Shown: positions 11,541 through 54,186, counted from the stretch's first letter. The stretch: 64,000 nucleotides of DNA from Chlamydiota bacterium (GCA_040388665.1 JAZKBL010000012.1:67390-131389), one strand, 5' to 3'. Notes: generated from the sequence alone by a model not told the origin. Made by a program: numbers and translations.

Positions 11541-11706
11541 TATTAGAGTTCTTCTAAAATCTCGGTAATTTTGGGAAGCTAAAATTTGTGAAGCCAAAAG
11601 TAGACATGTCGGGAACAAAGCACTTCGTGTCGTTGTTCCCGACATGTCTATTGTTGGCTCTATAATCTCAATTTTATGAACTCACGAGGGTTTTAGAAGA
11701 GGTCTA
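11541..11706. repeat. about 165-bp MITE-like imperfect palindrome
   Basis: Perfect inner 18-bp inverted repeat: tagacatgtcgggaacaa (11601-11618) / ttgttcccgacatgtcta (11633-11650). Outer arms tagagttcttctaaaa (11544-11559) / ttttagaagaggtcta (11691-11706) match 14/16. The left 78 bp recur at 53213-53290. Confidence 0.65.
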
Positions 11707-35707: not shown

Positions 35708-36688
35708 TTAATTTATTTTTTCTGAAGGCACTTTCAATTCTATTTTTTTGTCAACAACAACCTCGCCTCCACACTCTACTTTTTCAATTTTCCCTTCGCA
35801 CACCCTCAGATGAACATAAATATCAGAGGAAGCATTTAAACTGTCGCCCTGCCTGAAAAGCAACCTATGTTCTAAGCCGGATGGAAGCATTCCTTTTTCA
35901 AATAAATAACATGCAAGAGAGCCATTAGAGGAGCCTGTTGCAGATTCTTCATCAATACCATGCAGCGGAGCAAAATTGCGGCAATGAGCAATAGCCGCAC
36001 TCCCTGGAGGATCTAAGGAAAAAACGTGCATGCCAATCGAGTCTGTTCTTTTATTAAGCTCTGACATGAGTTTAAGGTTGGGTTTTAACGATTGAAGACA
36101 CTTCTCATCCTGCACCTGAACAAAAATATCACGAAGACCTGTTGAGACAATCCGTGGGTGAAGCCCACCGGTACTAACAAAATCTCCGAGAATAGAAGTG
36201 ATCTCAATCCCCCCGATTTCCTCTCCAAAAGCGGGTAAAGGTTGGCTCAAAAAGATCAAACGATCTTTTAGAGTTACCTCACATTTTCCTGCCTTGGTAT
36301 CCAGTGGATAAACTTTATCATCTGCTAATCCAAGCTGCCTTAGTACTCCAAATGCCGCCAATGTCGCATGACCGCAAAAATCAATAGGAGAAGTTGGTGT
36401 AAAATAAAGAGCTTTATATGGATGACTCCCTGCAAATGAAATAAAAACTGTTTCGGAAAAATTAAGTTCTTTTGCAATAGATTGCATTTGAGCTGGAGTA
36501 AACGGGTGTTCTTGATCCACAATGACAACGCCAGCGGGATTTCCCCCAAGAGAACCATGACAAAATGCTCTGGCAATATATGCAGTAAAACTCATACTTT
36601 CTTCATCCTCCTTATTTACAACTTTCTCCTTTCCGCATAACGAAAAGGACGCAGTACATAGATAAACAACAACTGCCCAAAACCACAT
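35708..36688 (-). CDS. PhzF-family isomerase-like protein with signal peptide (copy A)
   Basis: 'GNPAGVV', 'SETVF', 'FCGHATLAA' and 'ESATGSSNG' fit PhzF/DAP-epimerase-fold proteins. Paralog at 45762-46736. Confidence 0.85.
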   Translation of the reverse strand: MWFWAVVVYLCTASFSLCGKEKVVNKEDEESMSFTAYIARAFCHGSLGGNPAGVVIVDQEHPFTPAQMQSIAKELNFSETVFISFAGSHPYKALYFTPTSPIDFCGHATLAAFGVLRQLGLADDKVYPLDTKAGKCEVTLKDRLIFLSQPLPAFGEEIGGIEITSILGDFVSTGGLHPRIVSTGLRDIFVQVQDEKCLQSLKPNLKLMSELNKRTDSIGMHVFSLDPPGSAAIAHCRNFAPLHGIDEESATGSSNGSLACYLFEKGMLPSGLEHRLLFRQGDSLNASSDIYVHLRVCEGKIEKVECGGEVVVDKKIELKVPSEKIN

Positions 36689-36748: not shown

Positions 36749-37582
36749 TTAACTTTCAGGTGTCACGCGGGAAATTTCACGCTGTTCAAGTTCCAAACGC
36801 GCTTCACTGTCGGAAACCCAGCGGTGTTCGTGAACAAGAATGGACAGTTGATAATCAGCTATTTTTTCATTAAGCTCCGGAGCGCTTGCCATAGGCACGT
36901 AGTGAAAAGCTGTACATGGGATTTCAAGCTCACAGCAAGTATCATCCACGCTTTGAATTTGCTTCGTCCGATCATCAACAAAAATAATCTTCTTGAGGGG
37001 CGTAGTAAGGCCTGAAAGAACCTCCTTTAGAACCGGTCCTTTTGATTGACATTCTGTCTCGATAACTCCCCCGGCATATTCATAAAGTGCTCCTTGAGAG
37101 AGCTCCGGCAGATCATTTTTAAAAGGTATTCCAAGAACTCGTAATATTTGAGCTCTTGAGCCCCTTATAGACGGATCCATGGCTACTTTCGTAAAAGCTA
37201 CCACCTTTATCCCAAGATCTTGCGCTTGTACAACAACTTCAGGCCACCGTGCATCGAGCAGCTCCCATTTACCTAAAGTGCCTAGAATAATCCTGTCAAA
37301 GGCAATTTTTTCTTCTCTTGAAATGTTGGGACAGTGCGTTTGAAACCACTCATATTTCCATGCCTCATGAGAGGGATGGAGAATGGCATCAGGATAGGCT
37401 AATAGGGTTCCACCAACATCCAAAAGAACAAGAGTCTCTCTTGGACTGTTTGCAATCTCCTGTTGAATAGGTTCTAAGAAAGATGCCGTTCGAATTTCTG
37501 CATATCCTACACAAAAGTTAATTAAGCAAAATAATCTGATCAATAGCTTCATGATAGCTCCTGCAAGTCTCTTAAACGACAC
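36749..37582 (-). CDS. exported HAD-superfamily-like protein (copy A)
   Basis: Signal peptide. 'LVLLDVGGTLL' is a motif I variant lacking the second Asp. 'IIFVDDR' is motif IV-like. Truncated paralog at 43918-44670. Confidence 0.55.
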   Translation of the reverse strand: MSFKRLAGAIMKLLIRLFCLINFCVGYAEIRTASFLEPIQQEIANSPRETLVLLDVGGTLLAYPDAILHPSHEAWKYEWFQTHCPNISREEKIAFDRIILGTLGKWELLDARWPEVVVQAQDLGIKVVAFTKVAMDPSIRGSRAQILRVLGIPFKNDLPELSQGALYEYAGGVIETECQSKGPVLKEVLSGLTTPLKKIIFVDDRTKQIQSVDDTCCELEIPCTAFHYVPMASAPELNEKIADYQLSILVHEHRWVSDSEARLELEQREISRVTPES

Positions 37583-38852: not shown

Positions 38853-39194
38853 ATGTCACAATCTCTTGAAGATAAAGTCATCGCCTACCGCATGCTAGCC
38901 AAACAGATCAAAGAACTAGAAGATCAGAAAAAAGCTCTCAATAGCGAAATCATGAATATGCTCGCCCAAGACGTTAAGACTTTTTATATCGCTGATTTTC
39001 GCGTAAGTCGATGGAAAAGATTGTTGATTAAAACATCACTCGAAGAAGCACGCATACTGAAAGCCACTAAACACGAAGAAATTGTAGACAAAGAAATGAT
39101 CAAGCAGCTGTTTGAGCTCGGTCATGTTATTCCGGGCGTCACTACTCTAGAATCTTTAATTGTATCTGACAACCGAAGTTCTGCAAATTCATGA
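38853..39194 (+). CDS. hypothetical coiled-coil protein
   Basis: 113-aa ORF with a promoter-like element upstream. No family recognised. Confidence 0.45.
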   Translation: MSQSLEDKVIAYRMLAKQIKELEDQKKALNSEIMNMLAQDVKTFYIADFRVSRWKRLLIKTSLEEARILKATKHEEIVDKEMIKQLFELGHVIPGVTTLESLIVSDNRSSANS

Positions 39195-39375
39195 TTGTTC
39201 GAAAAACTTTGTTTCTATGGATTTTTCTCTTATCTGCATTGCAATCTCTCATAATGAAAAATTCCATTGGTATTGCAATGCCAGTTGACTATGTCCCAAT
39301 CATTCAAGACAAATTACTGCAATAACCATATTATACATATCGTAAATCAACAATCATATGTTTATAATCAATGGC

Positions 39376-42300
39376 TTAAGGATGATTTTCAAGGATGTGC
39401 TGCGCGCTTGACTCCAGATCAACTGATTCATTTTCAACAGGTAGCTCTTGAGTAGGGTCGTATAAGATGGCGCACGTGTTTTCGGGGATTGAATAAACTC
39501 CGTGTCCAGCATTATCGAGGGTGTCTACATATTCAAAAGGGCCTTTTGTGGAAAATGATTCTAAAGACCCTTTGTAAAGGTTTTTACTTTGAATATATTT
39601 TTTGTTTGAAACGAGGTAGAGATTAAGTTCTTTTGCTTTGTTTTTTGCGAATTTGAGAAGGGCTTTTTTTAGGGGAAGAGGATCACCATGTAGAGAGTAA
39701 AACTTATCTAATAAAAGGAGAGGTCTTTTATTTGCTTCATCCCAAAGAAGGCGTATGAGAAAGCGTGCGATTTGTTCTCCCTTCTCATTTTTTATTGCAA
39801 GGGCACGAATTTTTCCATCTGAAATATAACCTAAAATGTGAGTCCTATTTTCACCTCCATTGATGCGCAGACATCCTCCCGTTTCTTTTCCAAGAAGCAT
39901 TAGATCGGAAAAGTCACCGGTACAACTAAGCGTCCATCCTTCATGTTTTTGTGAATCAAGCATCAAAGGTTCGTTTTTGTCGCATAAGTAGTTGTTAACG
40001 AGATCATCAAATCCATTATCGCGTATTTTGTTAAGATGTTCTGTGTCGTTTCTCCACTCTGAAAATCTATTTTCAATGAGGGCTAAACAGCACTGTTTAA
40101 AAGTTTCAAGAGCAGCTGATTTGTTATATTCGAATCCACTTAAGAAGCGCTCGAAATTTAATTGATTTAAGACTCCTAAATAGGTGAAAATTGCATTTCC
40201 TGCTCTTAAGCTATCGGTAATTTTAAAAAAACTTTCTTCAACATGTTCTGTATAATCAGACCCAAAAAAATCTTTAGGTACGCTTTTAAATAAAGCTTTC
40301 AAAGGGTCTAAAGAGATGGGAGAGTTATGAATAGCAAGCTCAGAGGCTTTTCCTAGATCTATCAAAGCAGTTGATAAAACAAGCCTATTAATATACTCAT
40401 CGTCGTTATTTTTTTTAGCTATTGCGAATTTTTGTTTTTCTTCTTTCTTTTTAGAAGCAATCTTTTTTGAGCCTGGTTCAGTTCTTTGTTTTTTTATTGG
40501 ATTGAAGAAAATTTGTTGTAGAAGTGTTTCTTTGTTTTCACGTAAGAATTTTTCGTTCCGTTGAAGACTTAGTAAAAATGACATCAGCTGTGTTTTATGA
40601 GTTCTATCGTTAAAAAGATGGCTAGCAGATTTTAGACTTTTACTCCATTCATTGCGTGAGGTATTTTGCAATTTGGAGAGAGTTAAGTCCCCTAAAAAGA
40701 AAGCAAGGTCTAGTTTCGGAGGTAAGGGATTATTTTTCCATGTTTCCCATTGGTTAGATAGGATGTGCTCAGACAGAGATCTACGTACAACAAAGAATTG
40801 TTCTTCTGCTAGAATCTTGTTTTTTGAAAATGCGCGGATGAGACGGGTTAGCCGTGGTTGAATTTCTGGATGTTCTGATATAAGCCCCATGTATATTATT
40901 GCAGATCCTGCGCTGGAGACGCCGATTTTTCGAAGATCTTCAAAGACAGGTTTTAATTCAGGAATTAGATCGCCGCAAATGTCTAAAAAACAATGGGAAC
41001 TTAGTCCAAAAGGAAAATTTCCATAAAGCTTGTGGACAATGATATCAATAATCTTGAGCGCCTCTGTCTTATTGGCTATTTTAATGATTTCAAAATTTCT
41101 AACTAATTCAACCGGATGTTTTTCTGCGATGAGCTCCAAATTCAGGATATTTAACATGAGAGCATGTTGCTCTGAATTGAGATCTCGAAATTGATGAAAG
41201 TTGGTAATAACGAGTAAAGAGGCATTTTTTGCAAGAATTTTGACAAGTTGAGAGCAGCGCTCTGAATTGTCAATCCCAACTGGACTTAAATTAAATAGAT
41301 CAAAGTGAGGAACTATTAGTTCAGGTTTTGTTTCTGCAAAGCTCTCTAATGGTAACATCTCTGAGACTTCAAAAATCTGCTCAATGCTGAGTTGTTCAGA
41401 CTTGCGCATAGAGAACAATATTGAGAAATTTTTAATAAGATCTTCAGGGGCTTTTTCTGCCAGGATTTTCAAGATTTGAAAGCTGTGATTTGGATCAAGT
41501 TTTTTTAATGCATCGGCTTTTTTGATTACTTTTTTAGGAGCTTTTTCTGCTAGGATTTTCCAGATTTGAAACTTGTGATCTGGATCAAGTTTTTTTAATG
41601 CATCGGCTTTTTTGATTACTTTTTCAGGGGCTTTTTCTGCTAGGATTTGCCAAAGTTGAAAACTGTGAATTGGATCAAGATTTTTAAATTCGTAAGATTT
41701 TTCGATTACTTTTTCAGGAACTTTTTCCGATAGGATTTGCCAAATCTGAAAGCTGTGAGTTACATCAAGCTTTTTAATAAACAAGTAATAATTTTTGATG
41801 GTTACTTCAGGGACTTTTTCCGCAAGGATTTCCCAGATCTGAAACCTGTGATCTGGATCAAGGCCTTCAAATTTATAAGATCCTTCAACCGTCGCTTTAG
41901 GAACTTGTTCTGCAAGGCTTTTCCAGATCTGAAGGACTTGTATTGGATCAAGCTTTCTGATAAATTCGTAAGATTTTTTGATTGCTGCTTCAGGGACTTT
42001 TTCTACTAGGATAGTGAGGATCTGAAAATATTGCTCAGAATTGAGCATTTCAAACCTGTATAAGCTATTGAGTAACTCAAGAGGATCTCTTTCTGTAAGA
42101 GCCAAAGCGAGCTGGAAGCAATGATCATTGTTTTGAGATTTAAAGTGCTTTAAATAGATAAGCGCAGTTGACCAGTCGGAGTTTGCTATTTTTGAGATTC
42201 GTTTAAAACGTTCTTCATCTGCAATATTTATTATTTCTTTTTTAATAACATGTTGAATGAACTTGTCTTTTAAAACTTCTTCATGTTTGATTTCAGGGTT

Positions 42301-42408
42301 TTTGTTCCAAACTTTTGTTGCATAAGTAGTTAGAGTTTCATAGGTTAAAAAACCAAACGTCTCACAAATGGGTGCTATTAATTTTTTTAAATTATTATCT
42401 ATCGACAT
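39376..42408 (-). CDS. 1010-aa tandem-repeat protein (about 8 x 30-aa helical repeats); candidate effector
   Basis: Repeats of consensus 'FQIW.ILAEK.PEKVIKK...LKKLDP.H.' across roughly aa 97-332. AT-rich leader. No catalytic motif recognised. Confidence 0.8.
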   Translation of the reverse strand: MSIDNNLKKLIAPICETFGFLTYETLTTYATKVWNKNPEIKHEEVLKDKFIQHVIKKEIINIADEERFKRISKIANSDWSTALIYLKHFKSQNNDHCFQLALALTERDPLELLNSLYRFEMLNSEQYFQILTILVEKVPEAAIKKSYEFIRKLDPIQVLQIWKSLAEQVPKATVEGSYKFEGLDPDHRFQIWEILAEKVPEVTIKNYYLFIKKLDVTHSFQIWQILSEKVPEKVIEKSYEFKNLDPIHSFQLWQILAEKAPEKVIKKADALKKLDPDHKFQIWKILAEKAPKKVIKKADALKKLDPNHSFQILKILAEKAPEDLIKNFSILFSMRKSEQLSIEQIFEVSEMLPLESFAETKPELIVPHFDLFNLSPVGIDNSERCSQLVKILAKNASLLVITNFHQFRDLNSEQHALMLNILNLELIAEKHPVELVRNFEIIKIANKTEALKIIDIIVHKLYGNFPFGLSSHCFLDICGDLIPELKPVFEDLRKIGVSSAGSAIIYMGLISEHPEIQPRLTRLIRAFSKNKILAEEQFFVVRRSLSEHILSNQWETWKNNPLPPKLDLAFFLGDLTLSKLQNTSRNEWSKSLKSASHLFNDRTHKTQLMSFLLSLQRNEKFLRENKETLLQQIFFNPIKKQRTEPGSKKIASKKKEEKQKFAIAKKNNDDEYINRLVLSTALIDLGKASELAIHNSPISLDPLKALFKSVPKDFFGSDYTEHVEESFFKITDSLRAGNAIFTYLGVLNQLNFERFLSGFEYNKSAALETFKQCCLALIENRFSEWRNDTEHLNKIRDNGFDDLVNNYLCDKNEPLMLDSQKHEGWTLSCTGDFSDLMLLGKETGGCLRINGGENRTHILGYISDGKIRALAIKNEKGEQIARFLIRLLWDEANKRPLLLLDKFYSLHGDPLPLKKALLKFAKNKAKELNLYLVSNKKYIQSKNLYKGSLESFSTKGPFEYVDTLDNAGHGVYSIPENTCAILYDPTQELPVENESVDLESSAQHILENHP
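41413..42120 (-). repeat. in-frame 90-bp tandem repeat array inside the 1010-aa gene
   Basis: About 8 units. The units around 41479-41661 are nearly identical at the DNA level (ttttctgctaggattttccagatttgaaa...). Confidence 0.8.
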
Positions 42409-42529
42409 AATATAACCATCCTTGCTGTTTTAATATTTAAATGGTATCAAAAAATATGTTTTATTAATATATAAACTTTATTTATTAAATTAATAATATC
42501 ATTTTTTTTTGTAAATAGCTAATAATAAA

Positions 42530-42760
42530 TTATTTAAAACAACATTCCGATTGGACACAGCCAAAAAAATCACGACAGAATTGAATCGAGTCCCCTTTGA
42601 GATCGCATTGTCGACACCAATATCTTCCAGTTTCTTTCCAAATGATGAATCGATCCTTTCCCCCACATTTTGGACAAGGAGAGTGATATTCTCCGCCGCA
42701 AGTAGATGCTATCCGTTTTGGAGAAATTCCTAACTCTTGAGCAAAATGAAGTAAACTCAT
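42530..42760 (-). pseudogene. N-terminal zinc-ribbon fragment of a P4-alpha/plasmid-type primase(-helicase)
   Basis: 'CPKCGGKDRF..GRYWCRQCDLKGDSIQF' is the primase Zn-ribbon pattern. The ORF stops after 76 aa with no Toprim or helicase part. Confidence 0.55.
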
Positions 42761-42810
42761 GTTTCATACCCCCGAAATTTCAATGTTAATAATCCTGTCT
42801 TTTTTACCGC

Positions 42811-43047
42811 GTGACATAAGTGACAAGCGTGACTTATCTATAGAATGACATGTCACGGACGGTTTTTTCATGTGCGTGACACCGTGACAAAACTATTAGC
42901 TCCACACGGCCAAACCTCTTTTGTCACGCCTGTCACAGTTATAATCTAAAATCTCGTGACGGCAAGCAAGGCTATACAAGGACATCTATTTTCTCTATGC
43001 AGTCCGAATTCACACATTAGACTTGTCACAAGCGTCACGCGTGTCAC
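42811..43047. repeat. array of 12 GTGAC/GTCAC cores (iteron- or operator-like)
   Basis: GTGAC at 42811, 42820, 42829, 42876, 42884, 42956. GTCAC at 42852, 42923, 42932, 43025, 43034, 43043. Extended consensus sCGTGACa. The outer triplets (9-10 bp spacing) are mutually inverted. Palindrome TGACATGTCA at 42846-42855. Confidence 0.75.
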
Positions 43048-43069
43048 GTAAATAAAACGAACACAAAAT

Positions 43070-43885
43070 TTAAACATCTTCTTCCCCCAAAACCTTAGAT
43101 GTAAAAAGATAACATCGCGTTGTATTCTTCTTGCTTGGGAGGCGTTCGCTTCGAGTACATTCTCCTTGCGCACTTAGCTTAAGAAGTCCATGTTTTGCGC
43201 ATACTTTTGCCACAAGACTAGGGTCATACCCCTGACAGATTTCACTTTTATACCTCTCTGGAAACACGTAAAATTCAATCTCCTCATTGTTATTCCGCCT
43301 GAATCCTGTGCGATTTATCGTCTTAGTTTCACAAGATGCTTCCCAGAAAGTAAATCTACTTTCGCCATGTTGCTCAAAATAACGCTTTACTTGAGATAGT
43401 ATTGTGCTTTCCTCTTGAGATCCAACACCGCCCCGCACGCGTAACCATTCTTTAAAGCACTCTAAGGAGGCCTGAATGGCCTCTCCTTCATTCCACCCTG
43501 TAATTCCAAAACTTGCCGCCAATTCTCCTGCAACAGCAACTAATACAAAGCGATTCAGAACCCTCCCTACTTGCGCATCGGTATCAACTGGATAATGTTC
43601 CTGAACAAATCCACCAAAGATTTTTTTACCCATTTCAATAGCATTCGTTCGATCTGCGATCAAGCATTTGAGAAATTCACGACTAGCATTCCCGTAATAG
43701 GAACGGCATGCCGCTTCAAGAGCTTCCGCAAAAGCCTTTCCACTTTCAAAGCCGTGTAAATTCTCAAATATCCCAAACTTGCCAGTATCAGCAGGAATTT
43801 CGACAAGACGAACCTCCTGGCCAGCTCTCGTCCGTTTTCCCGCTTCTGACATATGTTGGCTTAAGGTTACCTCTCCAGTAGACAA
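43070..43885 (-). pseudogene. C-terminal fragment of a DUF927/COG5519-type primase-associated helicase
   Basis: 'RLVEIPADTGKFGIFENLHGFESGKAFAEALEAACRSYYGNASREFLKCL' matches my memory of the region after the ATPase core of DUF927 proteins. There is no ATPase or Toprim part upstream. Confidence 0.55.
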
Positions 43886-43917
43886 AAAAAACGATCGCCA
43901 AGATGCTTTACTCCTTT

Positions 43918-44670
43918 TTAGAGCGCCGTAAGAATCTGCTCGATTTTTACTTGCTTCATCCGATCGTCAACAAAAACAATCTTCTCAGGACGCATAGTAA
44001 GACTTGAAAGAATCTCCTTAAGAACCGGTCCCTTCAACTGACATTCTGTCTCAATGACCCCTTGAGCATATTCATAGAATGCCCCTTGAGAGAGTTCCGG
44101 CAGATCATTTTTAAAAGGTATTCCAAGAGTCCGTAATATTTGAGCTCTTGAGCCTCTCACGGAAGGATCCATGGCTACTTTCGTAAAAGCTATTACTTTT
44201 ACCCCAAGATCTTGCGCTTGTACAATAACTTCAGGCCACCGCGCGTCGAGCAGCTTCCATGTGTCTAAAGTGGCTAGAATAATCCTATCAAAAGCGATTT
44301 TTTCTTCTCTTGAAATGTTAGGACAATGCGTTTGAAACCACTCATATTTCCATGTCTCATGAGAGGGATGGAGAATAGCATCAGGATACGCTAGTAGAGT
44401 TCCACCAACATCCAAAAGAACAAGGATCTCTTTCGGACTGTTTGCAATCTCCTGTTGAATAGGTTCTAAGGAAGATATCGTTCGAATCTCTGCATATCCT
44501 GCACAAAAATTACCCAAAAAAATAATCCAATAAACAACTGCATCATGTTTTTTATATTCTTGCGGTATATCCACCACTCTCGAAAAATTAAAATCATAGA
44601 CTGCCGCCACCATCAACACAAAGAGTTTGACCTGTAATAAATCCAGCATCCTCAGAAAGCAGAAACTCAA
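43918..44670 (-). CDS. HAD-superfamily-like protein, copy B; 3'-truncated and with a replaced N-terminus (probable pseudogene)
   Basis: About 85-90% aa identity to copy A from 'GYAEIRT' to 'FVDDR'. Homology ends about 30 bp before its stop, next to the DUF927 fragment. No convincing signal peptide or start. Confidence 0.55.
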   Translation of the reverse strand: MSFCFLRMLDLLQVKLFVLMVAAVYDFNFSRVVDIPQEYKKHDAVVYWIIFLGNFCAGYAEIRTISSLEPIQQEIANSPKEILVLLDVGGTLLAYPDAILHPSHETWKYEWFQTHCPNISREEKIAFDRIILATLDTWKLLDARWPEVIVQAQDLGVKVIAFTKVAMDPSVRGSRAQILRTLGIPFKNDLPELSQGAFYEYAQGVIETECQLKGPVLKEILSSLTMRPEKIVFVDDRMKQVKIEQILTAL

Positions 44671-44679
44671 TAGCCAAGG

Positions 44680-45330
44680 CTACTCACCTCTTAGATTTTT
44701 GATCCAATAAATCATGAGATGATCTGTATCCTCCAAGGCATCAACCTCTTTCCATCGGTAATAACTGCTAAGACCCGGCTGTTTAATAAATCCGTTATCT
44801 TTCCAAAGAGATTCTACAAAAGAATCATAAGAGGGTCTTTCTATCTCACATAAAGAAATTCCATCGTACTCCGTCAATTCCATTACAAATTTTTCAAATT
44901 GTCGATAAAGTCTCTTTTGAATATCTGCATTTCTATATTCTGGAAGCAGAACAAACTCGCCTATATGAAAAATATGCTCCGCAATACTTTGCTTATGCTT
45001 AAACACTATACGATTTTCCTCTTGAGACTCAAGTAAGGGAAGCCCAGTGATAGCTCCAACCATTTTCTCGCCTTCTTTAGCAATTACAAACAAAGAATTT
45101 TTTGAATCAGCATATAAACTCAAATACTTCTCTTCTTCTATCAAGCTGCCTTCATAAAGATAAGGATAATCCCGATAAAACGAAATTCGTAATTCTGCAA
45201 GTTGCTTTAGATAAGGGATTACTTCAGTACCTTCTAGAACCTCGATTTTGACTATTGACTCCTCTATATGCGCACCCCACGCATTAAATTGCATGCAAAG
45301 ACACGCCAACAAAAACTTCACAATGCCCAT
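44680..45330 (-). CDS. GNAT-family acetyltransferase with signal peptide
   Basis: 'MGIVKFLLACLCMQFNAWG' signal. 'VGAITGLPL' and 'HIGEFVLLPEYRNADIQKRLYRQF' are GNAT-like. Confidence 0.65.
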   Translation of the reverse strand: MGIVKFLLACLCMQFNAWGAHIEESIVKIEVLEGTEVIPYLKQLAELRISFYRDYPYLYEGSLIEEEKYLSLYADSKNSLFVIAKEGEKMVGAITGLPLLESQEENRIVFKHKQSIAEHIFHIGEFVLLPEYRNADIQKRLYRQFEKFVMELTEYDGISLCEIERPSYDSFVESLWKDNGFIKQPGLSSYYRWKEVDALEDTDHLMIYWIKNLRGE

Positions 45331-45376
45331 ATTCTCTCTCAGTTAAAAATCTATATGTGCTTTCAGTATAGATAAA

Positions 45377-45709
45377 TTAAAAGTTCGTAGCACTAAAAAT
45401 TACCAAAGCTTTGCATCCTCTTGGTCGTCTATAACCCCCTTCCCTTCTAGGTCTTCTTTCGAACTCTTTTTCGTTAAGTGATTTAATTCTACGTTCAGGA
45501 TCAAAACCAGTAATAGTCACTATTTGATTGATATCATTCGAATTTCCTTTATTATGCCTTGTCAGTGCAGCTCGAAGAATTAAAGGAGAATAGATAGATC
45601 CTTTTAGCATAACTACTAAAGCTTCATGACCAGTTGTATAATCTGGGTAAACAGCGTATGTAATTTTTCCATCACCAGCCTTTCCTATCGCACACCGATC
45701 TTTACTCAT
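45377..45709 (-). CDS. hypothetical protein
   Basis: 110-aa ORF with an Arg-rich tail. No family recognised. May be a gene fragment. Confidence 0.35.
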   Translation of the reverse strand: MSKDRCAIGKAGDGKITYAVYPDYTTGHEALVVMLKGSIYSPLILRAALTRHNKGNSNDINQIVTITGFDPERRIKSLNEKEFERRPRREGGYRRPRGCKALVIFSATNF

Positions 45710-45761
45710 GCTATAAGTACTAGCAACAAGAACTTTTTTGACCTACAACATTCGAATTAAT

Positions 45762-46736
45762 TTATTTTTCTGAAGGCACCGCTAATTCTCTTTTTTTATC
45801 AACAACAGCCTCACCGCCGCACTCTACTCTTTCAATTTTCCCTTCGCATACCTTCAGATGAACATAGATATCAGAGGGAGCATTTAAACTATCACCCTGT
45901 CTGAAAAGCAACTTATGTTCTGAGCTAGATGGAAGCATTCCTTTCTCAAATAAATAACACGCAAGAGCGCCGTTAGAGGAGCCTGTTGCAGATTCTTCAT
46001 CAATACCATGCAGTGGGGCAAAATTGCGACAATGAGCAATAGCCGCACTCCCTGGAAGATCTAAGGAAAAAACGTGCATGCCAATCGAGTCTGTTTTTTT
46101 ATTAAGCTCTGACATGAGTTTAAGGTTGGGTTTTAACGATTGAAGACACTTCTCATCCTGCACCTGAACAAAAATATCACGAAGACCTGTTGAGACAATC
46201 CGTGGGTGAAGCCCACCGGTACTAACAAAATCTCCGAGAATAGAAGTGATCTCAATCCCCCCGATTTCCTCTCCAAAAGCGGGTAAAGGTTGGCTCAAAA
46301 AGATCAAACGATCTTTTAGAGTTACCTCACATTTTCCTGCCTTGGTATCCAGTGGATAAACTTTATCATCTGCTAATCCAAGCTGCCTTAGTACTCCAAA
46401 TGCCGCCAATGTCGCATGACCGCAAAAATCAATAGGAGAAGTTGGTGTAAAATAAAGAGCTTTATATGGATGACTCCCTGCAAATGAAATAAAAACTGTT
46501 TCGGAAAAATTAAGTTCTTTTGCAATAGATTGCATTTGAGCTGGAGTAAACGGGTGTTCTTGATCCACAATGACAACGCCAGCGGGATTTCCCCCAAGAG
46601 AACCATGACAAAATGCTCTGGCAATATATGCAGTAAAACTCATACTTTCTTCATCCTCCTTATTTACAACTTTCTCATTTCCGCATAACGAAAAGGACAC
46701 AGCACACAGATAAACGATAACTGCCCAAACTCTCAT
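45762..46736 (-). CDS. PhzF-family isomerase-like protein with signal peptide (copy B)
   Basis: Paralog of 35708-36688. Start trimmed to ATG 46736 (MRVWAVIVYLC), which aligns with the copy A start and RBS. Confidence 0.85.
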   Translation of the reverse strand: MRVWAVIVYLCAVSFSLCGNEKVVNKEDEESMSFTAYIARAFCHGSLGGNPAGVVIVDQEHPFTPAQMQSIAKELNFSETVFISFAGSHPYKALYFTPTSPIDFCGHATLAAFGVLRQLGLADDKVYPLDTKAGKCEVTLKDRLIFLSQPLPAFGEEIGGIEITSILGDFVSTGGLHPRIVSTGLRDIFVQVQDEKCLQSLKPNLKLMSELNKKTDSIGMHVFSLDLPGSAAIAHCRNFAPLHGIDEESATGSSNGALACYLFEKGMLPSSSEHKLLFRQGDSLNAPSDIYVHLKVCEGKIERVECGGEAVVDKKRELAVPSEK

Positions 46737-47113
46737 ATTCTCCTCTGAATTTTGGTGAAGAATACAGACTATCGTGGATTTTTTCAACCATAAGTAAGGA
46801 GCGTTGATTTAATTATCGTTCAATTCTACTGGTCTCATTCATTTTGCGTCAGTCTTAATTGGCCAAGCGCGTAAAATTTGCGTAATCCTATTCTGCAATT
46901 GACATATGTCAAATATGCTGGTACAAGGAAATGGGATGACCTGTTGGATAGTGAGCTTTTCTAGAGAAGCAGCAAAGCCGTACGAAAAACTTAAAAGAAG
47001 CAGCCTAGGCCGTCCATTAATGACGTAATCGATTTGCTCGTGCTTGATCTTCAAAAAAACGGCCCACAGCTTTCCGACTGGCCACACTTTGGAGTATTAG
47101 CAACAGAGCATTT

Positions 47114-47386
47114 TTGGAAAAGTATGGCGAATCTGATTCTATCCCCTGGGAAGATCTCACCAAAGACCGCATAGCCAAGTACAAAAAATCTGGCTTGGCA
47201 CTTCGTGGAGCTAGATACCGCGAAAGCATCTCTCAAAAAGAGCTCGCTAAGCGCACCGGCATTAACCAAGAAAACATCTCTCGCATGGAAAACGGGAAAA
47301 GAGCCACCGGCGAACAAGTCGCTAAAAAACTCGCCAAAGTCCTCCGCATTAACTTTGAACTGCTAACAAACAATGGTCAAAAATGA
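47114..47386 (+). CDS. XRE-family helix-turn-helix regulator (antitoxin-like)
   Basis: 'ISQKELAKRTGINQENISRMENGKR' HTH_3 pattern. The frame is open upstream, so the start is uncertain. Confidence 0.75.
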   Translation: MEKYGESDSIPWEDLTKDRIAKYKKSGLALRGARYRESISQKELAKRTGINQENISRMENGKRATGEQVAKKLAKVLRINFELLTNNGQK

Positions 47387-47407
47387 AAAATTCTGTTCGT
47401 ATTGTAA

Positions 47408-47752
47408 TCATAGTGATTTCCCCTTCCTTCGGGGCCTTCTTCTAATGGGGGTTTCGTAAAGTCTACTACGAAGATCTTCAGGAACTGCTTCGTAAGCTTT
47501 TTTCAAAAAAGCTTTCAACTCGGCTAAAAATGGATATCTGGGATTGAATTGATAAAGTTGTGTTTTTCCTTGAGCCTGCCTCACTAAAATCCCACCCTGC
47601 TCTAACCGTCCTAATGCAATCTGGATGCTATATAAAGGAATGCTCAGCTCTCTGCTCATCTGAATAGCGTAACTTTTCTCATTGGCAGGCAAATAAAAGA
47701 GAATCTTCTCAATCACCACATTACCAAATAGCTTTTCAAGCATAACAACCAA
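47408..47752 (-). CDS. winged-helix (ArsR/MarR-like) DNA-binding protein
   Basis: 'SYAIQMSRELSIPLYSIQIALGRLEQGGILV' is wHTH-like. Basic tail. Confidence 0.5.
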   Translation of the reverse strand: MVVMLEKLFGNVVIEKILFYLPANEKSYAIQMSRELSIPLYSIQIALGRLEQGGILVRQAQGKTQLYQFNPRYPFLAELKAFLKKAYEAVPEDLRSRLYETPIRRRPRRKGKSL

Positions 47753-48726: not shown

Positions 48727-49020
48727 TCAATGATAATCAATAATTCGCACGTCATAAGGCTGATTATCCCAACGAAATACAATCCGCCATTGCTCATTGA
48801 TCCGAATGCTATAACATCCTTTTAAATCTCCGCTTAAAGCCTCCAACCGATTACCTGGAGGACTTCGCAGGTCCTTTAACTCGCACGCATAGTACAACAT
48901 ATCAAGCTTTCGTCGCACAATCGCCCGGATACTTGCCCATCCCTTCCTCGAAGGAGCTCTTCCGCTCTTAAAAAAGACCTCGAAATCTTCATCTTGAAAA
49001 GACCGTATGACCATCTTCAA
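48727..49020 (-). CDS. higB: HigB-family toxin (plasmid maintenance system killer protein)
   Basis: 'IRSF.D...E.FF..GR......W..I...V.RKLDML..A..L.DLRSPPGNRLEALSGDLKG.YSIRIN.QWRIVF.W......V.IIDYH'. Confidence 0.8.
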   Translation of the reverse strand: MKMVIRSFQDEDFEVFFKSGRAPSRKGWASIRAIVRRKLDMLYYACELKDLRSPPGNRLEALSGDLKGCYSIRINEQWRIVFRWDNQPYDVRIIDYH

Positions 49021-49133
49021 TCGCCCATTAAGCTATATATACCTCAACAAGGTATACTACACAATAGATAATTTTCAAGAAAAAAATTAGATAGAACGAC
49101 AAGAAAGCTCACGACTTAACGAAATGGAGGGTA

Positions 49134-49240
49134 CCCCCAATTGGAGCCCGAGTCAAATTTCAAAGATCTTCAAATAACACAGTGTGGGCAACACGGGCTA
49201 TTCAAAGATCTTTGAAATTTGACCGGGATACGATTGGGGG
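49134..49240. repeat. 107-bp imperfect palindrome abutting the tRNA-Tyr fragment
   Basis: Arms 49134-49170 and 49205-49240, including a perfect 19-bp inverted repeat gtcaaatttcaaagatctt / aagatctttgaaatttgac. The right arm's last 6 nt (49235-49240) are also the first 6 nt of the tRNA-Tyr fragment. Confidence 0.65.
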
Positions 49241-49291
49241 CGGTGTGACTCGAACACACGGACTCCGAAGAGGAGGGATTTACAGCCCTTG
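49235..49291 (-). repeat. direct copy of the 3' part of tRNA-Tyr (att-like remnant)
   Basis: Identical to 53969-54020 (discriminator through anticodon loop). Similarity then continues across a 1-nt gap to 49291. Same orientation as the intact gene. Confidence 0.75.
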
Positions 49292-49657
49292 AAAATCAAT
49301 AAGTTACAACGAGCTACGCAACTTAACAGTAAGGCAATCAAAAAGATACATTAAAAAGTTTTTGGTAATTTCCTGTGAAAAATCGCCAATCCTTTTTTTC
49401 ATTTGCACCACTGATGCACCAAATACTCTTCTCTTACAAAATCATGCGCACGCGAACATATCCTTAAAATAAGCTGTTCATTTGTTGACAAGGTGACCTT
49501 GTAAACGACTGCCACCATCGGCGTCTTGATGGTCGATGCGCTCAAAAATTGCACTTTAAAAATGCAGCCTCTACCGATGCAAAAGGATAAGACGATCCGC
49601 CTTGCTCTCACGCTTTATTATCTTTAGCAATCATCCAGCGGTCTTTAAAAATATCTT

Positions 49658-50896
49658 TTATTCCCAGGTTACATCAACCCCGGCTTTGACATTCCCCTTC
49701 ATCTTTCCAAATCGATCCTTCTTTGTCGTTGTCTCAAGTTTGTAGGTTACGGAATTTGTTTTGTTCTTAGCAGAATATTTTACAATGTGCTCTTCTTCTG
49801 ACCCAGATATTCTTGTCTCTTCCGAAACCGTTTCTTTGTAATTGTTATTTTTAGGAGCAGTAAGACAATTTTCATCCAAGGAATCAAAACAAGGATGGTT
49901 TGTCGCACTGTCTTTACAAACGGAGTTATCGGCTTTTTTTAGCTCCGGTTCCGTTAAGCGCTTTGAAATTATTTCATTCTCAACTGTTTGATTTCCTTCC
50001 GCATCGCCAATGTAAATCATTTTATTCGGGTAATCGATATATAAGATTCGGCCTTCCAAGAAGTTCATCCCCAAAACGCCATCGATTTCATGCAGCTCGG
50101 AAGTGATGTCATAAAGATAAAGATCCGATCTCCCAAAATCTTTCCCCGCTATAACAAATTTTTCTGAAGTGAATATTGGCATACCATACTGACTTTTGCA
50201 GGCGTCTGTGCCTTCTACGACGCGTGAGGCTCTTAATAAAGAAACTGTGGACCCTGTGTCCAAGGAAAGTCGGATCTGTCCAATATCTGTATCGATATTC
50301 AAAAGCAATCCAGTTCTTCCTGTATTAAAAGGAACAACGAGATATTTTTCAGGAAAAAATCCACGCTTTATCAACACATCAAGATTATTACTTTCCAATA
50401 TAAAAAGGTTATGAAAATCTAATAACAGACTCATCTTTTCCAAGATTCCTCTACCTATCACCCCATTTTTATCATTAACAAGCTCCAAATCACTCATATT
50501 TGTATAAAGCGTGGTATTTTTTATAAAACCTTCATCAAGTTGTTTTACAACTACATTAGAAAACACACTATTTCCAACAACAACTTTTGAAATTAAATAA
50601 GCATTAGAATCATAACTATTTCCCTTTCCATCCCTTCCGACTAAGACACCAACCGGTTGCTTATCCAAACAATCCAAGATCTCCTCAGATAAAGTTAATT
50701 GAAATTTCGAACCATAATCCACATCCAATAAAAATTTAACTCCTTGAATTTCGACATCAATTGAGGGTGTTTTTGCCCGACTCATTTTCATAGGAACTAT
50801 CTGCCTTCCCGAATCTTTGACACATAGAAACCAGATAAAACTTCCAATTACTCCTACAAATAAGGTGATAGCAAAGAAACGAGGAATCCGATTCAC
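49658..50896 (-). CDS. membrane-anchored protein with two tandem retropepsin-like aspartic protease domains
   Basis: N-terminal TM. Domain 1 'FLLDVDYGSKF...VIGRGILEKMSLLLDF'. Domain 2 'RLSLDTGSTVSLL...IDGVLGMNFLEGRILYIDY' (DTG at 50252-50260). Beta-rich tail ending 'GVDVTWE'. Confidence 0.65.
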   Translation of the reverse strand: MNRIPRFFAITLFVGVIGSFIWFLCVKDSGRQIVPMKMSRAKTPSIDVEIQGVKFLLDVDYGSKFQLTLSEEILDCLDKQPVGVLVGRDGKGNSYDSNAYLISKVVVGNSVFSNVVVKQLDEGFIKNTTLYTNMSDLELVNDKNGVIGRGILEKMSLLLDFHNLFILESNNLDVLIKRGFFPEKYLVVPFNTGRTGLLLNIDTDIGQIRLSLDTGSTVSLLRASRVVEGTDACKSQYGMPIFTSEKFVIAGKDFGRSDLYLYDITSELHEIDGVLGMNFLEGRILYIDYPNKMIYIGDAEGNQTVENEIISKRLTEPELKKADNSVCKDSATNHPCFDSLDENCLTAPKNNNYKETVSEETRISGSEEEHIVKYSAKNKTNSVTYKLETTTKKDRFGKMKGNVKAGVDVTWE

Positions 50897-51909
50897 CAGT
50901 CGACCTCGAACGTTGTCTTAATTTGTCCAGATGTGTTCCCCTCACTGTCTTTTTCTACTTTACCAGAAAATCCTCCTGAGAATTCAACGCCATTTTCCGT
51001 TCTGTCTCTAACTTCGATACTAGCTTCAACTGATTTATTCCCATCTATATCTTGCGTTGCAGATACCTCGGCATGCCCTTTGCACAAAATACTGGAATCT
51101 TCTTTCAAAATGTTTGCCCAGTTGTATTCAATCGAAGAATCGAATTGGACAATTGAAAACAATCCATTGGAGCAATTTCTCTGTTCAGCCAGATAATACT
51201 GTCCATAAATCAGCCCCTGCGGTTGAAAAAGAAGCGTCAACTGCGGTCCTAGAGCACCTTCGATCCTGGTAAAATTGGACAATTCGATAGCTAGAGTCCC
51301 AAATTCACCGCATAAAACGAAAGGAATCGAATCTCTGGAATTCGAATAATCATCTTCTACTTTACTGACAACAATCTCTAATAAGCCTGGATCGCTCAGC
51401 CGCGTAAGATACAAATGTCCTATAGGGTTTTCTTGGTTTAGAATCACAAAATCAAATAACCCACAACCATCTCCAAACGGGATGAAAAGAGGATTTTCGA
51501 TATGATACTTGGAAGCAATCAAGGAAATGCCTCTATCGCACGTTTCAGCATAAAAATGCGCATACAGATCTTTAAGTGCTCTATAATACACATATCCTTC
51601 CTGATGCGACCCGATTCCCTGCAAACACACGATATCTGCATCAGACCCCAGTATCTCCTCAGAAATATTTTGATCCACCTTCACTGTAGCATTGAAAAGG
51701 GTAAACTGACTTTTTTCGGCCACTCTTTCTTCAGCATCTCCCTCCAAATAGGCATAAGAATGCACATGTACTTCCAGTCTTTTGTCTAAAAAACATTGGT
51801 AGGAATCATCAAACATCGATTCTTCTTCAACCCCGCTACATACAATATTAGAAACCATCTCATCAACTTGTACAGAGTGTGCTAACAATGTGCGTCCGGT
51901 AACGAGCAA
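50893..51909 (-). CDS. endonuclease/exonuclease/phosphatase (EEP)-fold-like protein with degenerate catalytic motifs
   Basis: 'DADIVCLQGIG' (canonical LQE has become LQG), 'ISLIASKYHI', 'PFVLCGEFG' (canonical GDFN has become GEFG). 4-nt overlap with the downstream protease gene. Tail ends 'TFEVDW'. Confidence 0.45.
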   Translation of the reverse strand: MLVTGRTLLAHSVQVDEMVSNIVCSGVEEESMFDDSYQCFLDKRLEVHVHSYAYLEGDAEERVAEKSQFTLFNATVKVDQNISEEILGSDADIVCLQGIGSHQEGYVYYRALKDLYAHFYAETCDRGISLIASKYHIENPLFIPFGDGCGLFDFVILNQENPIGHLYLTRLSDPGLLEIVVSKVEDDYSNSRDSIPFVLCGEFGTLAIELSNFTRIEGALGPQLTLLFQPQGLIYGQYYLAEQRNCSNGLFSIVQFDSSIEYNWANILKEDSSILCKGHAEVSATQDIDGNKSVEASIEVRDRTENGVEFSGGFSGKVEKDSEGNTSGQIKTTFEVDW

Positions 51910-52072
51910 TCCAAAAAAATAACTGAAGATTTCATCATAACTCCTCTTTTCTTGAAAATCCTAGCACCTTAAATAAATTCGTGCAAAAACAAAATTGCCA
52001 CCTGATCCACCCTGTAGGATCATCGATGAGGAATTAAGACTTTTGACCGGAACCCGCATCAAATTTAATTTC

Positions 52073-52102
52073 TTGACAAATCGAGTGGTTTTTTTGTATA
52101 AA
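52073..52102 (+). promoter_or_regulatory. sigma70-like promoter candidate for the AbiEi gene
   Basis: TTGACA (52073-52078), 18-nt spacer, TATAAA (52097-52102). The -10 element ends 22 nt upstream of ATG 52125. Confidence 0.35.
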
Positions 52103-52124
52103 ACCCTTAAATATTAGGGGATAT

Positions 52125-52883
52125 ATGAAGATGCCGGAGTCAGAACTCTTTGAGATAGCGGAAAGTCAGCAGGGGTATTTCACCTTTCAACAGGCTGTTA
52201 CTGCTGGGTTTAGTGATAAAAATCATGCTTATCACGTCAAATCAGGTGACTGGGTCAAAGTTTTTAGGGGTATCTATCGGCTTGCTAAATATCCGGTAGG
52301 GGAAAGGGAAGAACTTGTTCTTTGGTTCCTCTGGTCTAGAAATCGATCAAATGTTCCCCAAGGGGTATATTCTCATTATACAGCTCTTGATCTCTATGAG
52401 CTTTCAGATTACATGCCATCAAAATTACACATGACCGTTCCAATGGGATTTAGAAGAATGGCAAAAATTCCTGAGGTTTTAGTTTTACATAGAGAACAGT
52501 TGCAAGCCAATGAGATTGTGATGCAACAAGGTTATAAAATCACCACCCCTTTGAAAACCTTGATTGATGTGCTAAATGATGGTGTGCTAGCGGAGGATCT
52601 ACTAGTGCAGGCTGTTCAGGATGCTAAGAAAAAGAGACTAATCACGAAACATGCTATTGAAACCAATAAAAGATGTCCTGCTAAAATCGCTGAAAGGCTC
52701 CTAAAAATAATGGAAGAGCCGACTACCCTTCCACTACCACCAGAGGGATGGAATGTAAAATTTGCTTTGTTAGCAAAAGAATGCGGAATCAATGAATCAT
52801 TAGACCGAGCTATGGAAAGCGTTGAGGAATTTTATCAGAAGGCCGTAGTTAAAAATTTTCTAAGCGACGTATTGCTGCCTTAA
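52125..52883 (+). CDS. AbiEi-family (type IV TA) antitoxin-like transcriptional regulator, orphan
   Basis: N-terminal 'QQGYFTFQQAVTAGFSDKNHAYHVKSGDWVKVFRGIYRL' fits the AbiEi_4 domain. No AbiEii nucleotidyltransferase ORF follows. Confidence 0.65.
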   Translation: MKMPESELFEIAESQQGYFTFQQAVTAGFSDKNHAYHVKSGDWVKVFRGIYRLAKYPVGEREELVLWFLWSRNRSNVPQGVYSHYTALDLYELSDYMPSKLHMTVPMGFRRMAKIPEVLVLHREQLQANEIVMQQGYKITTPLKTLIDVLNDGVLAEDLLVQAVQDAKKKRLITKHAIETNKRCPAKIAERLLKIMEEPTTLPLPPEGWNVKFALLAKECGINESLDRAMESVEEFYQKAVVKNFLSDVLLP

Positions 52884-53060
52884 ATTTCTCCACTCTTCAG
52901 CCGATAATCCTTTACTTGCTAGCTTCCCCATGCCTACGGCTAACATTCTAAAAGCATCTGCACCGTGGCTAGCGAAATTGTGTAGAGGCTGTCTAGACCA
53001 GCACCCTAGTCGGTCGTTCCATTGCTTTTTGTAGCTTTCTAAGGCTGTGATTCCCTTAGC
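52860..53060 (-). pseudogene. C-terminal fragment of a phage terminase large subunit
   Basis: Hand translation: 'AKGITALESYKKQWNDRLGCWSRQPLHNFASHGADAFRMLAVGMG...'. The '...L..Y...W........P.H.+.SH.ADAFR' pattern is the terminase C-terminal nuclease end. No upstream ATPase part. Confidence 0.55.
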
Positions 53061-53066
53061 ACACTT

Positions 53067-53212
53067 GATCTCATCAAACCAGCAGCTTTTAAAGAGATTG
53101 ATTCCGATCTGAACCAGGCATTAATGGTCGTAGAAGACAACAAGAAAATCATCGGCACCTGTCATCTGACCTACATACCCTCGATTACTTTCCAAGGCGG
53201 AAAAAGATTAAA
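53067..53212 (+). pseudogene. internal fragment of a GNAT acetyltransferase gene
   Basis: Hand translation 'DLIKPAAFKEIDSDLNQALMVVEDNKKIIGTCHLTYIPSITFQGGKR' looks like GNAT N-terminal beta strands. It has no start and is cut off by the repeat at 53213. Confidence 0.45.
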
Positions 53213-53290
53213 TATTAGAGTTCTTCTAAAACTTCGGTAATTTTGGGAAGCTAAAATTTGTGAAGCTAAAAATAGACATGTCGGGAACAA
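53213..53290. repeat. half copy (left arm) of the 11541-11706 MITE-like element
   Basis: About 74/78 identity to 11541-11618, by eye. It ends inside the 18-bp core repeat at 'cgggaacaa'. Confidence 0.75.
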
Positions 53291-53353
53291 GTTGCTAAAA
53301 AGCTCGCCAAAGTTCTCCGCATTGATGTTGCATTATTGACAGATGACATCTAA
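53288..53353 (+). pseudogene. 3' fragment of an XRE-family regulator gene (paralog of 47114-47386)
   Basis: 'QVAKKLAKVLRIDVALLTDDI*' compares with 'QVAKKLAKVLRINFELLTNNGQK*' in the intact gene. DNA similarity starts at the shared 'gaacaag' junction with the repeat. Confidence 0.55.
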
Positions 53354-53354
53354 G

Positions 53355-53786
53355 TTACGAAAAAATACAACTGTCTTGTGAATACTCGTTAATTCTTTGA
53401 GCAGCTGCAGCACGTTGAAGTTCAATGAATCCTTCGCGACTCATAGAATGGCAAGTTGATCGATCATGAGGAAAAACTACACGTGGAGCAGATACGCGAA
53501 TATTTGCTAAATAAGCTTCATTTAAGCGAGTAAGAGAGGCTTTAGCATTCTCAAATAATTTAAGAGATAAGCGAAGGAAAGAATTGCCTTGAAATTCTTT
53601 CTCTATCTTTTCTATAAACGATCCTAAAGGCATTTCACCACTAGGTGGATCCATTTTGATTTCTTCCCAAAACTTTTTCAGGTAGTCATCCACACGCTTC
53701 CCGCAATCTTTCGAACTCGCAGAAATCTCCTGCAATTCGTGAATACAACAAGTTGAAAAATCACGTACTTCTACTAAACCACTCAT
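53355..53786 (-). CDS. hypothetical protein
   Basis: 143-aa ORF next to tRNA-Tyr. No family recognised. Confidence 0.45.
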   Translation of the reverse strand: MSGLVEVRDFSTCCIHELQEISASSKDCGKRVDDYLKKFWEEIKMDPPSGEMPLGSFIEKIEKEFQGNSFLRLSLKLFENAKASLTRLNEAYLANIRVSAPRVVFPHDRSTCHSMSREGFIELQRAAAAQRINEYSQDSCIFS

Positions 53787-53968
53787 TTCTTCCTTCTCTT
53801 TTAATTTTTATAGATACCACTAAGGGCGGCAAGCCGACCCCATGAGGGATCATCTGCTGGAATTGAGGAGATCTTTCGATAGATTTAAAAAAACGCGACG
53901 CAAGTAATCTCAATGAGCGTTCTTTAAAAGCTGCGAAAGAGAACTCAGTTACAGCGATGATAACAAAA

Positions 53969-54050
53969 TGGGGGCGGTGTGACTCGAACACACGGACTCC
54001 GAAGAGGAGGGATTTACAGTCCCTTGCAATTGCCACTATGCGACACCCCC
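53969..54050 (-). tRNA. tRNA-Tyr (anticodon GTA), long variable arm
   Basis: Minus-strand read: GGGGGTG acceptor, anticodon arm AGGGA-CTGTAAA-TCCCT, variable arm CCTCTTCGGAGTC, T-loop TTCGAGT, 3' CGCCCCC-A. No encoded CCA. Confidence 0.9.
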
Positions 54051-54065
54051 GAAACAGGAAAGATA

Positions 54066-54138
54066 TGCTGGAGAAAGGAATTGAACCCTCAACCATCCGA
54101 TTACAAGTCGGGCGCTCTACCAATTGAGCTACTCCAGC
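54066..54138 (-). tRNA. tRNA-Thr (anticodon TGT)
   Basis: GCTGGAG acceptor, D-arm GCTC-AATTGGTA-GAGC, anticodon loop CTTGTAA, T-loop TTCAATT, 3' CTCCAGC-A. Confidence 0.9.
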
Positions 54139-54186
54139 ACGAGGAAAGATGAAAGTGTAACAAAGTGTTGATTTTGTTACAAGAGT

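Follow-up and report, generated by a model that had tools for sequence, protein, structure and literature searches.

A Probable Integration Scar at tRNA-Tyr Bounds Decayed, Integrase-Less DNA in an Environmental Chlamydia

In a 64,000-nt stretch of DNA (the window, to which all coordinates given without a contig name refer) from the Chlamydiota bacterium assembly GCA_040388665.1 (JAZKBL010000012.1), the tRNA-Tyr gene and a direct copy of its 3' part bracket 4.7 kb of DNA. We interpret the 51-nt repeat as the scar of site-specific integration into tRNA-Tyr, and the enclosed DNA as the integrase-less, nonmobile remainder of at least one such element at a long-lived hotspot, a reading to which we assign a probability of roughly 0.8. 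The genome that contains the window, called G000 below, is a 1.76-Mb assembly of 73 contigs.

RESULTS

tRNA-Tyr and a displaced copy of its 3' part

The intact tRNA-Tyr(GTA) gene was placed by ARAGORN at 53969-54050 on the minus strand, next to a tRNA-Thr(TGT) gene at 54065-54139 on the same strand (also ARAGORN), and is the sole tRNA-Tyr gene of the G000 assembly. It is the attL-side target gene, and the attR-side scar is a displaced 3' fragment at 49235-49291, also on the minus strand, which has 51/51 identity to the tRNA gene from the anticodon loop to the discriminator, plus six further matching bases. The exact 51-mer (TGGGGGCGG...GGATTTACAG) occurs twice in the window, at 49235-49285 and 53969-54019, with no occurrence expected by chance (100 shuffles). 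The block opens at the first anticodon-loop base and closes with the discriminator, precisely where the gene stops; positions 32-76 of tRNA-Tyr are one copy of the repeat. Past the block there is a 1-nt gap, where tRNA position 31 is absent, and then CCCTTG (49286-49291) also matches. The fragment has the same orientation as tRNA-Tyr and lies on its 3' side, and the DNA between the repeats is 4,677 nt long (49292-53968). An earlier, sequence-only reading of this DNA had described the tRNA, its same-orientation copy, and the 1-nt gap, all of which were confirmed by ARAGORN, the exact 51-mer match, and BLAST.

No third copy of the tRNA-Tyr 3' part was found in the 1.76-Mb assembly, either by BLAST or by maximum-sensitivity nhmmer with a profile built from the 3' halves of ten relatives. 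A search for further degenerate fragments to the left, as a test for a tandem island or an older boundary, likewise gave only the two known copies (nhmmer --max). Because there are only two copies in the whole assembly, the fragment is not part of a dispersed repeat, an explanation that the sequence-only reading had left available. We found no flanking sequence in the window that had been duplicated along with the fragment. Between higB and the fragment there is a palindromic stretch of ~104 nt (49131-49234), which has no second copy in the G000 genome and is absent from the sister species G001, where the HigB flank goes straight into the fragment.

tRNA-Tyr as a recurrent integration site in relatives

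We searched 40 relatives of the same order, probably members of the Rhabdochlamydiaceae and neighboring chlamydial families, with the tRNA-Tyr/tRNA-Thr pair and found that at least 13 of the 40 carry a tRNA-Tyr 3' fragment beginning in the anticodon stem-loop. In 10 of these (G013, G020, G022, G040, G019, G034, G011, G024, G026, and G008), the fragment is on the tRNA-Tyr contig, 2 to 34 kb downstream of the gene, with orientation and side as in the window, while in G001, G032, and G006 it is on another contig (G001 and G032) or without a linked tRNA. In G000 and 12 relatives, alignment to the genome's own tRNA puts the start of the fragment within positions 27-32, from which it runs to the 3' end. 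Most of the relatives' fragments are identical to the resident tRNA-Tyr; those of G034, G008, G019, and G032 depart from it in the T or variable arm, as expected if a foreign attP has been substituted for the tRNA's 3' part. The right flank (genes for a SEC-C protein, a PP-loop ATPase, and a sodium:solute symporter) is conserved across the relatives, in contrast to the side downstream of tRNA-Tyr, which differs in each genus.

A whole-genome scan for PF00589 showed that G024 and G026, with islands of 12.1 and 14.5 kb, respectively, have a tyrosine integrase gene directly adjoining the intact tRNA-Tyr, and that in G008 an integrase gene adjoins the fragment. The G024 and G026 integrases are 39% identical over their full length, come from hosts in different families of the order, and are accompanied by primase/helicase genes. 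At the small end of the range, the 2-kb island of G020 consists of a complete AbiEi/AbiEii pair and nothing else (L034 2653-4118), and it is either a minimal island or the last module surviving from one. Because relatives share the geometry of the fragment and two of them have an integrase beside the tRNA, we conclude that the repeat in the window is an integration scar at a recurrent hotspot. The attL/attR-like footprint proposed from the sequence alone is thus borne out, both by its own geometry and by its recurrence at tRNA-Tyr of relatives.

Two other arrangements were seen at this gene. A large serine recombinase gene (Resolvase, Recombinase, and Zn_ribbon_recom domains) ends at the 3' end of tRNA-Tyr in G018 (L028 802-1494), and such a gene ends at the 3' end of the displaced fragment in G011 (L039 15747-17282) and G026 (L041 405-1056); G000 keeps only a 241-aa C-terminal piece at the start of contig C42 (53-775). 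Since serine integrases are not known to target tRNA genes (PMC4383910), this layered arrangement deserves a separate look. In addition, contig C1 of G029 carries two complete tRNA-Tyr/tRNA-Thr copies 12 kb apart (115652-115822 and 127819-127989).

Absence of an integrase from the island

The G000 assembly contains only two PF00589 genes, on contigs C13 and C19, both of them Xer-like. When the G024, G026, and G008 integrases were used as tblastn queries against the window and the genome, no integrase remnant was found in the window, and a hidden Markov model (HMM) of the integrase family built from four members, run with filters off (--max) on six frames of 49000-54000, gave no match. These searches uphold the earlier statement that no integrase is left inside. 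At the tRNA end, in the position where relatives carry the integrase, there is an orphan open reading frame (ORF) of 143 aa (53355-53786, minus strand), which has no family match in Pfam, PHROG, NCBIfam, or PADLOC and no similarity to the relatives' integrases. At the fragment end, a 366-nt spacer (49292-49657) has no recognizable coding remnant and contains a terminator-like hairpin (49589-49603, minus strand) just past the stop codon of the operon described below.

A frameshifted two-gene cargo operon

Next to the spacer are two minus-strand genes that form an operon. The first (50893-51935) encodes an EEP-fold (DNase I/TDP2-like) protein, assigned from a structure model that matches TDP2 and DNase I, in which the conserved LQE glutamate is replaced by Gly. 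The second (49658-50896) encodes a pepsin-like aspartyl protease of 412 aa, assigned from the profile matches of its homologs and from a structure model. A membrane helix at the N terminus of this protein is followed by a bilobal domain of the pepsin-like aspartyl protease type, with DYGS and DTGS motifs, and by a lineage-specific C-terminal module of four beta strands ending in Trp-Glu. Its homologs are rare and carry retropepsin-type Pfam domains, and its predicted structure (pLDDT 81) has the bilobal pepsin fold and matches penicillopepsin with an E value of 1e-9.

The sequence-only reading had taken this operon to be intact. However, we found that the EEP-like gene has a 1-nt deletion at T7GG (51911-51919), so that the ancestral ATG (51935) and nine codons of the signal peptide are no longer in frame with the rest of the gene, whose open frame begins at a TTG at 51909. 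Relatives are intact at this place: L062 and L066 (85% and 88% nucleotide identity) read T7GGG/T7GGGG and retain the signal peptide MKSSV(V/I)FLGLLV. The frameshift is shared by a Logan contig, an independent assembly identical to the window, which may come from the same sample. In the related contig L065, deletion has removed nearly the whole operon and joined the signal peptide to the final nine codons of the protease gene.

The pair is also found elsewhere. The metagenome contig L049 keeps the EEP-like and protease genes at 49% and 37% identity, in the order tRNA-Met, truncated integrase gene, DUF1016 nuclease gene, and then directly the pair, and the truncated integrase is 32 to 34% identical to the tRNA-Tyr integrases and belongs to the same family. 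Because it recurs beside tRNA-Met and a truncated integrase of this family, the EEP-like/protease pair is mobile island cargo.

Both cargo proteins end in a module of ~60 residues with four long beta strands terminating in Trp (encoded at 49658-49830 and 50893-51080), and this module is conserved throughout the EEP-like family. The four strands are predicted in the models of both proteins, with a pLDDT of ~70 to 80. Foldseek comparison of the models with the Hia and AtaA anchors gave weak matches (E values of 0.2 to 0.6), with a TM score of 0.57 on the target for the protease. Type Vc trimeric autotransporters, considered for both cargo proteins, have a trimeric coiled-coil stalk ahead of a four-strand C-terminal membrane anchor and a signal peptide at the N terminus. 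No coiled-coil stalk was seen here, and homologs have a signal peptide. Judging from these models, the shared Trp-terminated module may be a surface anchor for enzyme passengers that lack a coiled-coil stalk.

An AbiE fusion and smaller gene remnants

Beyond the operon, at 52125-52883 on the plus strand, profile matches and alignment with L065 identified an in-frame fusion of the AbiEi antitoxin (residues 1 to ~197) with the final ~50 residues of AbiEii. AbiEi is matched by its profile with an E value of 1.7e-65, and residues 186-241 align to the C-terminal part of AbiEii, at positions 216-268 of its 310-position profile. At 252 aa, the fusion is 51 residues longer than the closest chlamydial AbiEi homologs (~201 aa). 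The window lacks 386 nt that are present in contig L065 (88 to 94% nucleotide identity), which produces the abiEi-abiEii' in-frame fusion with a junction at ~52717/52719 and deletes the nucleotidyltransferase domain of the toxin. Thus, the AbiEi gene noted earlier is present but is not simply an orphan.

A phage-type terminase large subunit gene is represented by its last ~79 codons (52860-53120, minus strand; phrog_2472), and this remnant overlaps the end of the fusion ORF. It lies in an 86-codon frame with 75% identity to the final part of a G001 piece of 280 aa; that piece in turn shares 44 to 46% identity with annotated phage terminase large subunits. A 65-codon frame at 53043-53240 (plus strand) is a putative GNAT fragment; it has a weak PDB sequence match (E value of 4.5e-5 to residues 44-88 of 1z4e_A) and no Pfam or NCBIfam family match, so the GNAT assignment made earlier is weakly supported. 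At 53213-53290 lies the left half of a multicopy palindromic repeat element, cut at the first arm of its central palindrome, and at 53276-53353 (plus strand) is the C-terminal tail of an XRE-family gene, with 92% identity over 39 nt to an intact XRE gene at 47114-47386. The decay of the segment is seen directly in the frameshift, the in-frame deletion fusion, and the truncated genes, and the content listed in the sequence-only reading (the pepsin-like/EEP pair, AbiEi, terminase tail, XRE tail, half repeat element, and orphan ORF) was largely right.

The repeat element, with its central palindrome (AGACATGTCGGGAACAA...TTGTTCCCGACATGTCT), has a full copy at 11541-11660 of the window. Other copies are found at the ends of contigs C49 and C16 and at 36314-36513 of contig C24, with relatives on several G001 contigs, and the element breaks the assembly at two contig ends.

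Comparison with a sister species and debris outside the repeat

In the sister species G001, the fragment is joined to the same HigB-HigA flank, with 90% nucleotide identity to G000. The content behind the G001 fragment differs from that of the window, and a methyltransferase-like gene lies beside the G001 tRNA-Tyr. The same fragment and HigBA flank with different content show that the slot turns over. We also found that the tRNA-Tyr genes of G000 and G001 have four compensating differences in the T stem (GTGTG/CACAC versus GTCAG/CTGAC), and that each fragment bears the version of its own species. An inherited, neutrally drifting fragment cannot give such species-matched versions, which point either to independent integrations with host-matching attP or to homogenization by gene conversion.

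Mobile-element debris is also present outside the repeat, at 38.8 to 47.8 kb (38853-47752), where each piece has homologs in the tRNA-Tyr islands of a different genus. This debris includes the N-terminal piece of a primase (42560-42754; 58% identical to the G026 island primase), a toxin piece with XRE90 (46965-47386; homologs in the G022 island), a winged-helix gene (47408-47752; homolog in the G032 island), and two small ORFs, orf113 and orf110 (within 38853-47752), with homologs in the G019 and G034 islands, respectively. The variable DNA downstream of tRNA-Tyr is probably 15 kb or more in length. Nearby in the window a block is duplicated: one copy has a PhzF-family gene at 35708-36688 and a DUF2608-like gene at 36749-37582, and the other has their paralogs at 45762-46787 (PhzF) and 43918-44670 (DUF2608-like).

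We tried to set the left boundary by synteny, comparing the DNA at 14.4 to 54.2 kb with G001 and the encoded proteins with 52.8 kb of G019, and rejected the attempt, as there was too little collinearity for a core flank; distal flanks are not syntenic between genera. An integrase on contig C96 of G001 was considered as a partner of the G001 tRNA-Tyr contig and was rejected because it is Xer-like and the contigs have no overlap.

DISCUSSION

Weighing the proposed integration scar

Several observations weigh against reading the 4.7 kb as an integrated element. An island without an integrase does not pass the filter of the Islander definition (PMC4383910). Its composition is not atypical, with a GC content of 0.390 compared to 0.4055 ± 0.018 for the genome and a tetranucleotide distance at the unremarkable 67th percentile of genome chunks, so that the compositional contrast suggested for checking by the sequence-only reading did not appear against the genome. 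A clean empty tRNA-Tyr site, suggested likewise, was not found among the relatives searched. G001 has the same fragment and flank with other content, and G018 has no fragment, yet the gene abutting its tRNA-Tyr is a serine recombinase gene. G018 had been a candidate empty site, with a homolog of the first gene of contig C42 abutting the tRNA, and was rejected when this gene proved to encode the large serine recombinase. The fragment has 51/51 identity despite content that is heavily decayed and ~12% diverged from its nearest relatives, a combination that a simple old-scar model does not predict. Finally, the repeat bounds no coherent unit: in G001, the terminase piece adjoins a GNAT gene without a break, and the window copy of that GNAT gene lies at 44680-45330, outside the repeat.

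The native-like composition fits either long residence or chlamydial donors, and AbiEi homologs at 81 to 86% identity in Neochlamydia and Protochlamydia point to donors within the chlamydiae. Taken together, the G001 content, the T-stem versions, and the debris outside the repeat argue against one element eroding in place. The earlier description of an immobilized, eroding island therefore stands as to its decay and its missing integrase, but the implied single element eroded in place is not borne out.

Some of these same facts would follow if the tRNA and its fragment were an old frame and the 4.7 kb had come in, or been rearranged, through homologous recombination or gene conversion involving related chlamydiae, anchored in the tRNA, the fragment, and the HigBA flank, with no integration event of its own. 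Such exchange would suit the combination of a common fragment and flank with different content in G000 and G001, the species-specific T stems (which require gene conversion or independent events), the mosaic content, in which the terminase piece has a different neighbor in G001, and the native-like composition. However, independent integrations with host-matching attP account for the same facts and need no new mechanism, and relatives hold intact elements of the same geometry, so we consider exchange without integration to be unlikely. The perfect core repeats (51/51) raise another question, whether the island is satellite-like rather than dead and could still be mobilized in trans by the integrase of a coresident or coinfecting element, given that integrases of the matching family circulate in the order and that the island contains a terminase remnant. 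This we judge to be quite improbable, since the assembly's two PF00589 genes lie on other contigs and are Xer-like, we identified neither P-arm nor integrase-binding repeats next to the scars, and truncated genes abound in the content.

It is also conceivable that no mobile element was involved, and that the tRNA-Tyr region was duplicated locally, after which one copy lost its 5' half and unrelated genes accumulated between the two. The two complete tRNA-Tyr/tRNA-Thr copies in G029 and the duplicated PhzF and DUF2608-like blocks nearby in the window show what such a history might look like. But 13 genomes of several families share a fragment boundary in this anticodon stem-loop, the other boundary is exactly the tRNA's final base, there is no duplication of flanking sequence along with the fragment, and integrases occupy the homologous position in relatives, which together leave this history with very little probability.

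Proposed history of the locus

Under the integration reading, a tyrosine recombinase, probably of the G024/G026 type, would have integrated an element into tRNA-Tyr with a crossover in the anticodon stem-loop. The incoming DNA would have given the tRNA a new 3' part, and the old 3' part and the downstream flank would have been displaced by 4.7 kb, as the geometry and the comparison with relatives suggest. Content would then have turned over between species through repeated integration, excision, or recombination. The segment would now be immobile and unable to excise alone, as the assembly has two Xer-like recombinases only. It holds an EEP-fold/pepsin-like module predicted to be on the surface or secreted, a crippled AbiE, and scraps of terminase, XRE, and repeat element.

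A wider picture can be offered tentatively. In it, tRNA-Tyr would be a still-active, order-wide hotspot in environmental chlamydiae, served by one family of anticodon-loop tyrosine integrases and overlaid at the same tRNA end by a large serine recombinase element, and small self-replicating or satellite-like elements would ferry surface-enzyme and abortive-infection cargo from one obligate intracellular lineage to another; the G000 fragment would then owe its perfect identity to gene conversion or secondary att use and not to youth.

Significance

Environmental chlamydiae are obligate intracellular bacteria, and little is known of the routes by which they exchange genes. By itself, the feature in the window is an ordinary decayed tRNA island; it is of value for its context. 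The recurrent tRNA-Tyr hotspot of these bacteria gains a further documented case, and stepwise island erosion becomes visible, with a frameshift and an in-frame toxin deletion in the window and near-total loss of the operon in a close relative. The feature also identifies the EEP-fold/pepsin-like pair as horizontally moving cargo. Because the shared Trp-terminated beta module may be a surface anchor, this pair is a reasonable candidate for host-interaction studies.

Comparison with known systems

We found no paper on tRNA-Tyr islands in chlamydiae in our literature search. Among chlamydial islands, Pam100G of Protochlamydia amoebophila UWE25 is described (PMC548262) as a chromosomal, tRNA-associated island of ~100 kb with 17-bp direct repeats and an F-like transfer system. 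The window island is likewise chromosomal, tRNA associated, and bounded by direct repeats, but it is 4.7 kb long, has a 51-nt repeat, and carries no transfer or integration genes.

In its cargo, the island recalls the AbiE type IV toxin-antitoxin (TA) and abortive infection systems, which consist of adjacent genes for the AbiEi antitoxin and the AbiEii nucleotidyltransferase toxin. The window has AbiEi, but AbiEii is cut to its last ~50 codons and fused to it, and from its sequence the module is predicted to be incapable of working as a TA pair. AbiE-type and TA cargo is also found at tRNA-Tyr in the relatives G020 and G022. A phage satellite (PICI-like) or prophage, which would combine an integrase, a replication module, and packaging genes within one bounded element, is not indicated, as the island has only a terminase tail and no integrase, and the primase piece lies outside the repeat.

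Close counterparts are the elements of G024 and G026, which use this target gene and agree with the window island in where the fragment starts and on which side it lies. They retain an integrase next to the tRNA and, for replication, a primase/helicase module, in contrast to the window island, which has no gene in common with them inside the repeat; the homologous piece of the G026 island primase is the one at 42560-42754. More generally, the window can be set against the tDNA islands defined by Islander (Hudson, Lau, and Williams), in which the anticodon-centered att class "A" is the commonest, with 2,083 of 3,919 islands (PMC4383910). As in these islands, there is a full-length tRNA gene at one end and a downstream 3' tRNA fragment in the same orientation at the other, and the length of 4,677 nt is within the 2- to 200-kb range. 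As in class "A," the identity block extends from the anticodon stem-loop to the 3' end, with cargo genes between the repeats. The atypical base composition that is a general trait of tDNA islands is not seen, and the content is a patchwork of truncated genes. The island differs from the definition in having no non-Xer tyrosine integrase inside, and we therefore place it with this class as a decayed relic.

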